The notes under the pieces: generated by a model | The model's input: the letters and a program-made list of their open reading frames with translations, nothing else | Database searches by the model: none | What the model was told of the DNA's origin: nothing | Source: Clostridia bacterium | Lineage (GTDB): Bacteria; Bacillota; Clostridia; Christensenellales; Aristaeellaceae | Assembly: GCA_045599485.1 (NCBI GenBank) | Contig: JAZRWA010000019.1 | Span: forward strand, 1 to 21,249 | Direction: 5' to 3' | DNA: 21,249 nucleotides | Program-made: the position numbers and the translations under genes | Part shown: piece by piece, positions 1,134 through 14,164 of the stretch | Layout: every line of letters starts with the position of its first letter | Position numbering within the stretch: the stretch's first letter is position 1

Positions 1134-2645
1134 ATGCGGACGGAGATCAGAAAGGCGCTTTAGCCGTTCAGAAGACGGCTGACGGCGGAAGCCTTGCTGC
1201 AGGCGGCGGCGGAAGCGTGCATGGCGACATGCGGCACAGCGGCGGTGATGTTTGCGCTGCGGCAGTATGATTTGATGGCTCCGACCCTGTTTTTTTGCCT
1301 GATCCCCCTGTTTTGGTTGGTGCTGGGCGGCTTCTTTTTTCTTCATCGACCGACCTGGGTGCGTACAGCGAGGCGCGTGGACCGTACCTATGAGCTGCAG
1401 GACCGGACGGCGACCATGGTACATCTGGCGCAGGATGAGGCGTTTTTTTCCGCTCTGCAGCGGCAGGATACCATTGAAAAGCTGAAGCGGCTGAATCCCA
1501 AGGCAATCAGACTGCGCTTTTCACGCCGGCGGTGGCTGGCCCTTCTGCTTTGTGTGACCCTTTCCGCCGCTGTGGCGGCAGGAGCCTTTCTTTCGGCGCA
1601 ATGGCTGCGCGGAGGCGAGACGGAATACATGGAATCGGACGAAATGAAACTGGCGCGTGCGCTGCTGCAGGATATGCGTGAGCGGCTGAATGACGCCGAT
1701 TTGTCCGAACAGGAAAGGGAAGCGTTGCTGCGGCAGATCGAAGAGACCGAAAACGCCCTGAATGGCGATAACTTTGGTTTGGACGAGCTGGCGGGCATTA
1801 CCCGAACAGTGGGCGAGCTGCAAAGCCGGCTGGATGAATCGCTGATCCGCCGCGGCTGGATCTATCTGCTGCGGGAGGAGCCGCATTATACCGCTGTGGC
1901 GGACGGCATGATCAATGAGGATATACCGGCCATGCAGGCAGCGCTGGCGGCCAACTATAATGAAGTGATGAGCAAGACGGGCACGGAAGCCATCATTGCC
2001 CTGATGGATCTGAAGACGGAGATCGATGAGGCGCTGGAGGCGGATAACGAGCCCGATGACGAGGACGCCTATCTGCAGTACGCGTTTTATCTGTTTGCTG
2101 ATGATATGCTGGGTGCCGCCAACCACATTGCCGCGCACAAAAACCCGGACAGTGTGATCTTTAACGCCTTTGCGCTGCTGGAAAAGCGCCTGATCAGCAT
2201 CATCAACGGTGTGGATATCATCGTGGAGGCGGATGAGAACGAACAAAACATCTATTTCCGCCAGGAGGACGGCGATGAGGGCAGTGAGGACGGCGGCGGC
2301 ATGAACGGGCGCGCCGCGGAGGAAGGGGACGCGGAGGACGGCAGCGTGCTGCTGTATACCGCCGACCCGGACGGCATGCACGGCGCGGGCACCGGCACCC
2401 GCAGCCAGCAGCACTATGAAGAAAGCGAAAAGGTGTATGAGCCGTCGCTGGATCCGTACAGCACCGCCTATGACGCAGCGCGGGAATATGAATTTGAATT
2501 GAACGGCATCGAGATCGAAAACAGCCATGTGGCGTACGGTCAGGTCTATGGGTCGTATTATGCCCGGATGATCGAAGCCATCATGGACGGCCGCATCCCG
2601 TAGGAGATGCTGCATTCGGTCGAGGCGTATTTCTTTGGACTGTAA
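1134..2645 (+). CDS. Membrane-anchored acidic protein, first gene of the MoxR/DUF58/VWA module (DUF4175-like from memory). It contains two in-frame TAG codons (1161-1163, 2601-2603). The standard-code ORF is 1194-2603.
   Basis: The track ORF 1194..2603 starts at a TTG. The ATG at 1134 is in the same frame and has a strong RBS (AGGAGG, 7-nt spacer). It is separated from the ORF only by the TAG at 1161. After the TAG at 2601 the frame stays open for 13 sense codons (EMLHSVEAYFFGL) to a TAA at 2643-2645. Hydrophobic segments are present (TLFFCLIPLFWLVLGGFFFL, WLALLLCVTLSAAVAAGAFL), followed by a long D/E-rich region. The outer boundaries depend on TAG being read through. A conservative start is ATG 1221 or TTG 1194. 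Confidence 0.55.
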
Positions 2646-10197: not shown

Positions 10198-10217
10198 AGT
10201 CTTGAACAAATCAATCC

Positions 10218-10255
10218 CCCATGTGCGGATCACATGATCGGCACATGGGTTTTTT
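10218..10255 (+). terminator. Rho-independent terminator after the SDR gene
   Basis: CCCATGTGC (10218-10226) pairs with GCACATGGG (10241-10249). An inner GATC/GATC extension lengthens the stem. A T6 run follows at 10250-10255. Confidence 0.75.
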
Positions 10256-10351
10256 CAGTTTAAAAAGGCATCCGGTCTCAGAATATTGCGAAACAGGAAA
10301 GAAATGGATATAATAAAGATACAGAACAGACCTTTGGAAGGAGCAATATCC

Positions 10352-11485
10352 ATGAAATTGATCCATATTGCCGATCTGCATCTGGGCAAACAGATAGGAG
10401 ACCGACTGATTCTGGAAGAACAGGAAGCGGTGCTGCAGCAGATCATCAGCATTGCGAAGGATGAAAAAGCCGACGGCGTGCTGATCGCGGGGGACGTATA
10501 TCAGCGTTCTGCCCCGCAGGCGGAAGCCATGACGGTGTTTGATCGCTTTGTGTCGCAGATCGTGGAGCTTGGGAAAAAGGTGTTCATCATCAGCGGCAAC
10601 CATGACTCGGCACAGCGTATCTCCTATTTCTCAGCGCTGGTCAGAAATGCCGGGGTGTATGTGACGGAAACGTTTGATGGTCATCTGCAGCATGTGACGC
10701 TCAAGGACAGGGACGGCGAGCTGAATGTGTGGCTGATGCCGTTTTTGCGCCCGACACAGGTGAAGCGGCTGCTGCCGGAGGCAAAGATCGTCAGCTATCA
10801 GGACGCTGTCGCGGCGGTGCTGGAGGCCACAGAGATCGATTTTTCCAAGCGAAATGTGCTATTGTGTCATCAGTTCATCAGCGGCTGCGAGACGACCGGC
10901 GATGAAGAAAAGGCCGTCGGCGGTCTGGACCAGATCGACGGACGGGTGCTGGACGGATTTGACTATGTGGCATTGGGACATATCCACGGACCGCAGCGCG
11001 TGCTGCGGGAAACGATGCGCTATGCCGGCTCGCCGCTGAAGTATTCATTCTCCGAGGCGCGGCATAAAAAATCGGTCACGGTGGTTGAACTGCAGGAAAA
11101 GGGAGAGGTCAGGGTGAAGACTGTTCCCCTCTATCCGCTGCACGATGTGAGACTGGTGGAGGGAATGCTGGCGGATGTGATGAAAATGGACTATTCCGAT
11201 GATTTTGTGTGGGTCACCATCCATGACGAGCTGCCGCCCCCTGATGCCAAGGTGAGCATTACCAATGTGTTCCCCAACATGCTCAAGTTTTCGGTCGTCA
11301 ACAGCCGAACCAAGTATGATATGGATGTGCAGGCACTGCATGCGATGGAAAACAAACAGGCCATCGAGCTGTTCTGCGACTTCTATCGCCTGCAGAACAA
11401 TGATCAGCTGCCCAATGAAACACAGATGAAGATCCTTGAAAAAATCACCCGGGAACTGGAGATGAAGCCCGATGAAACCCTGTAA
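10352..11485 (+). CDS. sbcD: Exonuclease SbcD (Mre11-family nuclease subunit)
   Basis: ATG at 10352 with RBS GGAAGGAG and an 8-nt spacer. The track start at 10286 has no RBS. Metallophosphoesterase motifs are present: IHIADLHLG, AGDVYQR, SGNHD, LGHIHG. TAA stop. Confidence 0.9.
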   Translation: MKLIHIADLHLGKQIGDRLILEEQEAVLQQIISIAKDEKADGVLIAGDVYQRSAPQAEAMTVFDRFVSQIVELGKKVFIISGNHDSAQRISYFSALVRNAGVYVTETFDGHLQHVTLKDRDGELNVWLMPFLRPTQVKRLLPEAKIVSYQDAVAAVLEATEIDFSKRNVLLCHQFISGCETTGDEEKAVGGLDQIDGRVLDGFDYVALGHIHGPQRVLRETMRYAGSPLKYSFSEARHKKSVTVVELQEKGEVRVKTVPLYPLHDVRLVEGMLADVMKMDYSDDFVWVTIHDELPPPDAKVSITNVFPNMLKFSVVNSRTKYDMDVQALHAMENKQAIELFCDFYRLQNNDQLPNETQMKILEKITRELEMKPDETL

Positions 11486-14102
11486 GCTGGTCATGTCGGC
11501 CTTTGGCCCTTATGCCGGAAGGACGGAGATCGATTTTACCCTGTTGGGCGAAAACGGGCTGTTTTTGATCGCCGGCGATACGGGCGCGGGAAAAACAACG
11601 ATTTTTGACGCCATGAGCTTCGCCCAGTACGGCGAGGCGGCGGGCGGCAAAGAGAGAAGAAAAAGCAAATCCTTCCGTTCGGATTATGCCTCTCCCACAA
11701 CGGAGACCTGGGTGGATTTTACCTTTACGCACCGGGGAGAAACATGGCGCATCAAGCGCAGCCCGGAATATACCCGCCCCAAAAAGTCCGGCGAGGGCAT
11801 GACAACGCAGCCCGCTGAAGCCGAGATGGAGTGCGCCGAAACGGGAGAGAGTTACTATGGCCTCGGCGACGTCAACCGTCAGGCACAGGAACTGATCGGC
11901 CTGACGCAGGATCAGTTTACGCAGACGGTCATGATCGCGCAGGGGGATTTTCTCAAGATCCTCAACGCCGATTCCAAGGATCGCAAGGCGCTGTTTCAGA
12001 AGCTGTTCAATACGGAAATGTATGACAGGATCCGTGAGAAGCTGAAGGACATGGAACGTGAATGCAATGACGAGCGGGCGGATCTGGAAAAGCGGATCGA
12101 GGTGGCACAGGGGAAGATCGTACCCGATGCGGATTTTGCCGAAAGAGAGCTGCTGCAGCTGTATTGCACGGAGCCCAAATATGCAGCGCTGCTGCTGGAA
12201 GTGCTGGGACGCCAGATCGAACAGGAAAAGCAGGGGAAAAAGAAAGCTTCGGATGAAAAGGATCACGCGCTTCAGTGCCTGAATGAGGCCCTTGTGAGGC
12301 AGGAAGCGGGAAAAAGTCTGAACAGGCGGTTTGAAGAACAGGCCGCCTGCAGAGAAGAACTGAACCACCTGACGGCACAGCGGGAAGACGTGGAAGAGAA
12401 AAAACAGCGGCTGTAGATCGCGCGCAGGGCATAGAAACTGGTGCCCGCCGCCGCCCTGCTGAAGCGGACGGAGGAGCAGCTGGAAACGCAGCGGCGTCAG
12501 CTGGAAACATAGCTGCAGCGGCAGAAACAGGCGGCGGAAGCACTGAAGCCGGCGGAGGACCGCCTGCAGGAAGCGCTCAGCCATCAGGAGGAAGCAGCGG
12601 AGCTGCAGCAGAAGGCCAGACAGCTGAAGGAAACGGTGCCCGTGCTGAAGGAATTGACCGCAAAACTGCGTGAGCAGCAGCTGCTTCAGAAAAAGGTATC
12701 GGAGCTGACGGAGAAGAGCACGGCGGCGGATCGGGCGTATACCGCTGCAAAGGAGCAGTATTATCTGAGCCAGGCGGGACTGCTGGCGGCTGAACTGCGT
12801 GCGGGCAAGCCCTGCCCTGTGTGCGGCGCGGTGGAGCATCCGGCACCGGCGGCGCTTTCTTCGGCCGCGGTGACCGCCGAACAGCTGGATGCCGCGGATC
12901 AGAACCGCCGTCAGGCGGAAAAAGCGCTGCAGGATACGAACAACGCGCTGACGGAGATCAAGGGAAAAATCGACGCGGCCCGCGAAAAGCTGACGCAGCT
13001 GCATATTGCTGAGGAGGAAACGGAGCGCACCGTGCAGCAGAAGGCGCGTGCAGCGGAGGCTCAGGCGAAGGCGTATCTGGATGACATCGAAACGAGCCGC
13101 GAAGCGGTGGAGCAGACCAGGGAGCAGCAGTCGAAGAGCGCCGGCGCGGCAGAGAAGCTGCGGCAGGGTCTTGAGGAGCTGGAGAAGCAGCGGACAGAAC
13201 AGCAAAGCGGCTTTGAGGCTGGACTGCGGACATGCGGCTTTGAGAATGCCCGGGCGTTTGAAATGGCGAGGATGCCCGAAAACGAGATGGGCCGCATGGA
13301 GAAGGCGGTGCGGGAATACGGTGAACAGCTGCGTTCCCAGTCCGACCGCGCGGAAAGGCTGGCGGCGGAGCTGAAGGACAAGCAGCCTGCCGATCTGGAT
13401 AGCCTGCAGAAGCTGTGCGACGACCTTCAAAAAGCACACAAGGCCGCGGAATCGGCCGAACAAGCGTATGATAAGAAGCTTGTGATGCATGAGGACGCGC
13501 GCAAGGAGATTGAAAAAGCCCTCAAACAGCGCGAACGCCGTCAGAATCACTGGGCGGCGGTGCATGACCTGTATACCTGCTGCGCCGGTCAGACAGCAGG
13601 CAGCCGCAGGGCGAAGCTGACCTTTGAGGCCTATGTGCAGCAGTACTATTTCAAGCAGGTGGTGACGGCGGCCAATCTGCGCCTGAAGGTGCTGACGGAC
13701 GGCATGTTCCACCTGCGCTGCAAGGAGGAAGCCGAGGACCGTGTGCATCAGAGCGGCCTGGACCTGGATGTGCATGACAGCAGCACGGGGCAGTGGCGTG
13801 ATGTTTCGACCCTGTCGGGCGGTGAATCCTTCCTGGCAAGCCTGGCGCTGGCACTGGGGCTTTCCGATGTGGTGCAGGGACAGAGCGGTGCCATCCGCAT
13901 GGAAGCCATGTTTATTGATGAGGGCTTTGGCACGCTGGATGATAACGCGCTGCGCAATTCCCTCCGTGTGCTGGATGATCTGGCGGACGGCAAGCGTCTG
14001 GTGGGCATCATCAGCCATGTGCATGAACTGGAAGAGAAGATCGACAAACAGATCGTCGTCAGCAAGACACCCGGCGGCTCGAAGGTTACCGTGGTGGTGT
14101 GA
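11472..14102 (+). CDS. sbcC: Exonuclease SbcC (Rad50/SMC-like ATPase), one reading frame interrupted by three in-frame TAG codons (12414-12416, 12432-12434, 12510-12512). It is either recoded/suppressed or a pseudogene.
   Basis: Track ORFs 11472..12416 and 12636..14102 share a frame (both starts are divisible by 3). The 219-nt gap translates as continuous coiled coil with no TGA, no TAA and no indel. N-terminal Walker A is IAGDTGAGKTT. The zinc hook CPVC is at 12813-12824. The ABC signature is LSGGESF, Walker B is MFIDEGFGTLD, and the H-loop is ISHV. The ATG overlaps the sbcD end by 14 nt. TGA stop. Confidence 0.8.
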
Positions 14103-14164
14103 CAGCCCCCCTGATTTGAATACATATTCCCTGCATTTTTGATACATATTCTATTCCTTTGCGC

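Follow-up and report, generated by a model that had tools for sequence, protein, structure and literature searches.

In the literature consulted, all natural stop-codon reassignments known in bacteria concern UGA (PMC8629427, PMC13462651). In the survey of Shulgina and Eddy (2021; PMC8629427), every bacterial code change then known reassigns UGA, and a 2026 paper on Eggerthellaceae describes UGA cases only (PMC13462651). Reading of UAG as a sense codon is known from phages, from eukaryotes and, recently, from archaea. TAG-to-Gln recoding is established in gut phages (10.1101/2021.08.26.457843, PMC9523058), and some archaea translate TAG genome-wide as pyrrolysine (Pyl), a code of which the authors report no bacterial case (10.1101/2024.09.30.615893). 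In ordinary bacteria, scattered conserved in-frame stops under weak constraint have been documented (Belinky et al., 2021; PMC7918605). Translation of UAG in a bacterial lineage was not among the cases we found; our coverage of the literature was incomplete, so a prior description is possible. Here, we analyse positions 1 to 21,249 of contig JAZRWA010000019.1 (assembly GCA_045599485.1; Clostridia, Aristaeellaceae), a stretch referred to below as the window, in which sbcC, the gene for an SbcC/Rad50-type ATPase, contains three in-frame TAG codons. Together with related loci, the window points to a probable amber-decoding lineage of gut Clostridia, in which the phenomenon is larger than sbcC.

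Several described systems resemble this locus in part. The phage 'genetic code 15' (Lak, crAss-like and other phages) likewise combines in-frame TAGs in conserved genes with TGA and TAA terminators, a gut habitat and Gln as a leading candidate residue. By contrast, the locus described here is a bacterial chromosome with housekeeping genes (fumC, pckA, sbcCD and the moxR operon), TAG is far rarer, and no suppressor tRNA was seen on the window or the related loci. With the bacterial UGA reassignments (code 4, UGA to Trp; code 25, UGA to Gly), it would share a lineage-wide change from stop to sense, detected via in-frame stops in conserved genes, but the codon and release factor involved would be UAG and release factor 1 (RF1) rather than UGA and RF2. 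The archaeal 'Code 34' is also a prokaryotic use of TAG as a sense codon, with in-frame TAGs in diverse genes and post-TAG extensions that restore homology; however, it relies on Pyl machinery and is linked with methylamine methanogenesis, whereas in our case the aligned residues suggest Gln or Glu and there are no known Pyl genes. The cases of Belinky et al. (2021; PMC7918605) include orthologous in-frame TAGs that alternate with CAG in related species, with ratios of non-synonymous to synonymous substitution rates (dN/dS, or omega) below 1 in the vicinity of the stop. The genes concerned are isolated ones with dN/dS of 0.66-0.82, whereas in our case several genes are hit within 20 kb, by TAG only, with omega of 0-0.17 and no evident true TAG terminator. 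Finally, in Escherichia coli supE strains and in recoded E. coli deleted for RF1, the weakness or absence of RF1 allows a tRNA(CUA) or near-cognate tRNAs to read UAG, but these laboratory strains were selected or engineered, whereas the present lineage is a natural one that occurs in no fewer than 8 independent gut metagenomes.

In-frame TAG codons in the window and its relatives

Comparison of the sequences makes it likely that the organism represented by the window and a sister clade of gut Clostridia translate UAG, or efficiently read it, as an amino acid and that sbcC is a working gene. We infer decoding at the level of the lineage because in-frame TAGs are common to diverged relatives, the codons downstream of them are under purifying selection and several unrelated genes are hit. 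The sister clade consists of MAG223, a metagenome-assembled genome (MAG) from horse faeces (GCA_024404275.1; contigs L001, L010 and L017), and the Logan and ENA contigs L005, L007-L009, L011-L016 and L018. These contigs stem from at least 8 samples, and their SbcC and SbcD proteins are, respectively, 77-82% and about 90-93% identical to those of the window. A scan of metagenome contigs yielded no close relative, and a scan of genome contigs yielded L001 only.

In the window, the sbcC frame opened by the ATG at 11472 contains three TAGs, at codons 315, 321 and 347 (Table 1), just where the original prediction had placed them. The first is already present in the deposited record, because the protein on record is a 314-aa product identical to the translation of 11472-12413. 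When TAG is read, the frame of 876 codons becomes colinear with hundreds of SMC-family/SbcC proteins of 876-878 aa, and the best full-length match is to 877-aa SMC-family ATPases (60% identity). Throughout these 2.6 kb there is no frameshift, TAA or TGA, in agreement with the claim that the gene is free of indels and other types of stop. Gln or Glu had been expected at the three TAG columns, and the nearest relatives indeed carry codons for Glu, Gln and Glu, respectively. By contrast, the exclusive use of TAG, previously regarded as one of the stronger points, turned out to be a weaker argument. The gene contains 64 CAG, 48 GAG and 46 AAG codons, 61-73% of the possible single-step nonsense changes in it yield TAG, and the probability that three of three would be TAG is 0.22-0.39, which is not significant alone.

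The TAGs of sbcC are real, but the original prediction missed two further in-frame TAGs of the window and the phenomenon is not confined to sbcC. Both additional codons lie in geneA, a membrane-protein gene located 5' of moxR, for which the mechanical open reading frame call (1194-2603, with a TTG start and a TAG end) is wrong at both ends. The call begins at TTG 1194 because codon 10 of the gene is TAG; the ATG at 1134 sits seven bases after AGGAGG (AGGAGG-N7-ATG), and in three sister contigs codon 10 is GAG within an otherwise identical context, MRTEIRKAL-x-PFRRRL. At the other end, 13 codons (EMLHSVEAYFFGL) separate the apparent terminator (codon 490, or geneA-470 when counted from the TTG) from a TAA, and these codons match the conserved C-terminus of the family, ..VEAYFYGL. 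Nine geneA homologues end in ..VEAYFYGL/M, each exactly 14 residues beyond the end of the alignment, and reading through the TAG restores homology to this family C-terminus. In total, the window genes contain five frame-0 TAGs, all internal, three in sbcC and two in geneA, and no other lesion.

The sister clade carries additional TAGs at positions where the window has sense codons. For instance, sbcC codon 660, which is GAA in the window, is TAG in eight sister contigs from eight samples (NCBI MAG GCA_024404275.1, ENA and Logan), in a column occupied by Glu or Asp in 116 of 120 homologues; in MAG223, NCBI annotates the resulting C-terminal part of SbcC as a 211-aa 'hypothetical protein'. Codon 434 of the same gene is TAG in L008 and encodes Gln in 118/120 homologues. 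Outside sbcC, codon 43 of fumC is TAG in L009 (GAA in the window), and a gene for a VWA-domain protein has an in-frame TAG in L001 and L018 (CGG in the window). Overall, no fewer than five unrelated genes of this lineage contain in-frame TAGs, and two of these TAGs have been kept across diverged genomes. In the window plus about 60 kb of related loci, about 10 distinct gene interruptions were counted, all of them TAG, and no interruption of a real gene by TAA, TGA or a frameshift was found.

Several technical and mutational sources of the TAGs were considered and rejected. Sequencing or assembly error does not apply, since the same kind of TAG recurs in independent NCBI, ENA and Logan assemblies. 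The changes inferred at the three sbcC sites are, on the coding strand, G-to-T, C-to-T and G-to-T; they do not form one deaminase signature, which speaks against a single mutational process, and a diversity-generating retroelement is ruled out because none of them is adenine-directed. As for a template switch or gene conversion, only short and weak repeats and hairpins occur around 12200-12800, none of which places a T at the TAG positions. A special sequence context was also rejected: an A frequently precedes the in-frame TAGs, but ATAG is usual in every frame, accounting for 15 of the 26 TAG trinucleotides on the + strand of the window, with CTAG occurring once. The 26 occurrences are about ten-fold below the expectation based on composition (the GC content of the window is 57.8%).

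The read-through product of sbcC shows all the features of the SbcC/Rad50 family, namely, the Walker A motif, a coiled coil with a CxxC hook, the C-terminal motifs and an adjacent sbcD. Pfam domains AAA_23 and SbcC_Walker_B were recognized in its N- and C-terminal parts, respectively, and Metallophos and SbcD_C in the product of sbcD, the adjoining 5' gene. The catalytic motifs, described earlier as intact, could all be located: Walker A, CPVC, LSGGE, Walker B and the H-loop (Table 1). The intactness of sbcD was confirmed as well, and the proposed coupling of the two genes is matched by a 14-nt overlap of sbcD with the start of sbcC.

Two further features of the gene were observed. Residue 52 of SbcC, near Walker A, is Gln (CAG, 11625-11627) in the window, a substitution peculiar to it; Leu is found in L001, L005, L007 and L008 and in >=98% of the 120 homologues. 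In addition, the minus strand contains a 900-aa open frame (11445-14147) antisense to all of sbcC, with a low-complexity translation rich in L, Q, R and F, which seems to reflect the preference for CAG, CTG and GAG in the coiled-coil region and does not look like a gene.

Table 1. Positions of geneA, sbcD, sbcC and their main features in the window
Feature	Position	Strand	Remarks
geneA, membrane-protein gene 5' of moxR	1134..2645	+	AGGAGG-ATG start to TAA (2643); two in-frame TAGs
In-frame TAG, geneA codon 10	1161..1163	+	GAG (Glu) in sister clade
In-frame TAG, geneA codon 490 from ATG 1134 ('geneA-470' from TTG 1194)	2601..2603	+	TAG kept in L016, L017 and L018
sbcD	10352..11485	+	Intact; stop TAA; 14-nt overlap with sbcC start
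sbcC (SbcC/Rad50-type ATPase)	11472..14102	+	876 sense codons with TAG read; terminator TGA 14100-14102
Walker A, GDTGAGKT	11574..11597	+	sbcC motif
In-frame TAG, sbcC codon 315	12414..12416	+	GAA (Glu) in sister clade; variable in distant homologues
In-frame TAG, sbcC codon 321	12432..12434	+	CAG (Gln) in sister clade; Gln in 109/120 homologues
In-frame TAG, sbcC codon 347	12510..12512	+	GAG/GAA (Glu) in sister clade; Ala in 109/120 distant homologues
Zinc hook, CPVC	12813..12824	+	sbcC motif
ABC signature motif, LSGGE	13812..13826	+	sbcC motif
Walker B / D-loop, MFIDEGFG	13908..13931	+	sbcC motif
H-loop	14007..14018	+	sbcC motif

Selection downstream of the TAG codons

The eight contigs with TAG at sbcC codon 660 diverged after this TAG arose, because all of them share it. 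Over the 216 codons downstream of TAG660, pairwise synonymous divergence (dS) is 0.04-0.19 and dN/dS is 0-0.17. The seven distinct sequences contain 41 synonymous and 12 non-synonymous segregating changes, whereas under neutrality 24% of the changes would be synonymous (p=2e-16); omission of L007 leaves 28 and 3, respectively. Judging from this pattern of substitutions, the region downstream of TAG660 is translated. Similarly, the geneA-470 TAG is common to the window and the sister clade despite a dS of ≈0.35, and L017 and L018 differ in the 13-codon tail behind it by 3 synonymous and 0 non-synonymous changes.

For the window itself, codons 315-388 of sbcC, which would remain untranslated under the standard code, have an omega of 0.29-0.37, compared to 0.38-0.40 for the preceding and flanking coil. 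The baseline for the same codons, determined between two sister contigs without TAGs there, is 0.31. In the C-terminal head of the protein, omega is 0.11, like that of the N-terminal head. Relaxed selection or other lesions in sbcC had been named in the original prediction as the signs of a recent pseudogene; neither was found, with omega at its baseline, no mixed lesions and no relaxation after the TAGs. The count of deviations at conserved columns, relative to the set of 120 distant homologues, is uninformative in this respect: on either side of the TAGs, the window SbcC exceeds a typical homologue ~3.8-3.9-fold in deviations, and the window is an outgroup to that set. The view that sbcC is a live gene with its TAGs read is supported, mainly by the TAGs of the relatives, which lie outside the coordinates originally considered.

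Possible modes of UAG decoding

If UAG is decoded throughout the lineage, the TAGs of sbcC would be ordinary, albeit rare, sense codons, and the SbcCD nuclease gene that contains them would be a working one. These TAGs would have arisen by single first-position changes of GAG, CAG and GAG, within a coiled coil that is tolerant of substitutions and unusually rich in codons one step from TAG. The decoder would be a tRNA with the anticodon CUA, RF1 would be lost or weakened, and the inserted residue would most likely be Gln or Glu. Many Gram-positive bacteria, Clostridia included, lack glutaminyl-tRNA synthetase and make Gln-tRNA by amidation of Glu-tRNA. If this lineage also lacks the synthetase, either Gln or Glu could be inserted by a tRNA(CUA) that descends from tRNA-Gln. 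At six or seven of the TAG sites the orthologous codon is GAG or GAA; two sites have CAG and one has CGG. Among the TAG columns, 321 and 434 are near-invariant Gln, and 660 and geneA-470 are acidic (the latter with Glu in five, Asp in three and Ala in one), the rest being variable; rough, hand-calculated log-likelihoods of Gln and Glu at these columns are practically equal.

We lean, with modest confidence, towards the more specific conclusion that this lineage of uncultured gut Clostridia, comprising the window contig, GCA_024404275.1 and contigs from at least 8 metagenomes, has reassigned UAG to Gln and/or Glu with RF1 lost or disabled, which would be the first natural amber code in a cellular bacterium. 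Standard pipelines would miss such a reassignment, with TAG making up only about 0.05-0.1% of codons.

Several observations weigh against the decoding of UAG in the lineage. Three of the five TAGs of the window fall within one stretch of 33 of the 876 sbcC codons, a clustering (p≈0.004 for three independent nonsense hits) that is unaccounted for by a simple sense-codon model; the gene holds 17.5% of the TAG-adjacent codons of the window. Furthermore, these three TAGs are known from a single contig, the sole representative of its species, and their age is not directly measurable. As a sense codon, TAG is very rare, with 5 occurrences in about 6,600 window codons. No tRNA genes were found on the window and 12 related loci, and prfA (encoding RF1) is not on any of the fetched loci, with no genome-wide search having been aimed at it. 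Terminators are also of limited help. The 14 visible in the window comprise 10 TGA, 4 TAA and no TAG, and there are no TAG terminators in L009, L017 and L018 once the read-through cases are removed. The outgroup L019 (GCA_054286065.1; 59% SbcC identity, 22.6 kb) has no in-frame TAG, yet TAG is also absent from its 17 stops (TAA 11, TGA 6), and the lack of TAG terminators is for this reason a weak sign rather than a diagnostic one. TAG terminators may have disappeared ahead of the use of TAG as a sense codon, or TAG may be an infrequent stop in this group anyway. At codon 372 of sbcD (AAG in the window, 11465-11467), L001 (5994-5996) and L007 (2280-2282) have TAG, whereas L008 has GAG and L005 has TCG. 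In the window, L005 and L008, sbcD ends at a TAA five codons further downstream, and the TAG may just as well be a genuine early stop as another read-through TAG.

The ambiguous sbcD codon fits natural amber suppression, in which RF1 would be retained and UAG read on only a fraction of the ribosomes, by a suppressor tRNA or by a near-cognate one, with the TAG-containing genes made at a lower level; there, the sbcD TAG could serve as a stop. The rarity of TAG as a sense codon, and its occurrence in genes that may tolerate a reduced dose, agree with this explanation, as do the conserved in-frame stops under purifying selection for which read-through that lowers expression has been proposed (Belinky et al., 2021; PMC7918605). 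However, suppression of this kind would leave an sbcC with three TAGs strongly turned down rather than fully expressed: three serial partial read-throughs would yield very little SbcC, yet selection on sbcC looks normal. An in-frame TAG also affects a central metabolic enzyme, at fumC codon 43, and another lies at geneA codon 10; the sbcD case aside, no true TAG terminator was seen in the lineage. We regard suppression with RF1 retained as a real but rather unlikely explanation.

Some Firmicutes carry pyl genes. In some archaea, TAG reportedly encodes pyrrolysine throughout the genome and occurs in frame in many ordinary genes (bioRxiv 10.1101/2024.09.30.615893), and a bacterial counterpart of their 'Code 34' could be envisaged. 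This appears improbable, given that the residues aligned with TAG in the relatives are Glu or Gln but never Lys-like, and that the bulky Pyl would fit poorly at columns that are near-invariant Gln (109/120 and 118/120) or strictly acidic (116/120). The code is moreover stated not to have been observed in bacteria (10.1101/2024.09.30.615893), and no pyl genes are present on the fetched loci, although no genome-wide search was aimed at them.

Under the standard code, sbcC is cut at codon 315, and its three TAGs come from one contig only and represent the commonest nonsense product in this gene, all of which would be expected of a very recent pseudogene with three nonsense hits, the other in-frame TAGs being separate, tolerated truncations. 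This explanation is very improbable. Three independent hits within 33 codons are themselves unexpected at p≈0.004, and the 2.6 kb contain no frameshift or other stop; selection on sbcC is not relaxed. Elsewhere in the lineage, in-frame TAGs are retained in the long term with strong purifying selection downstream, and the post-TAG tail of geneA keeps the motif of its family.

Rad50 heads can be reconstituted from separate halves. Splitting of the genes, with a stop at each TAG, a restart downstream and assembly of SbcC from separate polypeptides, is hardly credible, because the features compatible with it, namely, a GTG 15 nt after TAG660 in the sister clade, where gene callers give the 211-aa product, and a GTG at 12636 of the window preceded by AAGGAA, are offset by a GTT in L001 in place of the latter and leave without account the TAG at geneA codon 10, the one 13 codons before the geneA end, fumC codon 43 and the three successive TAGs of the window sbcC.

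Surroundings of sbcCD and significance of the probable UAG decoding

Between the SDR gene and sbcD, the window contains a GC-rich inverted repeat (CCCCCATGTGC...GCACATGGG; 10207-10256) followed by TTTTTT, which, from its sequence, looks like an intrinsic terminator. Because of this resemblance, the sbcDC pair probably has its own promoter. The region 5' of sbcD differs between the genomes: a minus-strand gene for a secreted protein occupies it in L005, L007 and L001, and genes for DUF1648 and SDR proteins in the window. Otherwise, synteny between the window and the sister clade is kept on both sides, with moxR-DUF58-batA-VWA and Fe-ADH-fumC-flavin reductase-M18-pckA.

If UAG is indeed translated in this free-living bacterial lineage, the implications would extend to several areas. 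It would represent a new bacterial genetic code and a natural example of an early, low-usage stage of codon capture, with the outgroup that is already without TAG terminators hinting at the order of events. Annotation with translation table 11 would then miscall sbcC, fumC and other genes as pseudogenes or fragments, such as the 211-aa C-terminus of SbcC. Such a lineage could supply natural UAG-decoding parts for genetic-code expansion, and its code would also have a bearing on phage-host biology, given that TAG-recoded phages occur in the same habitat.

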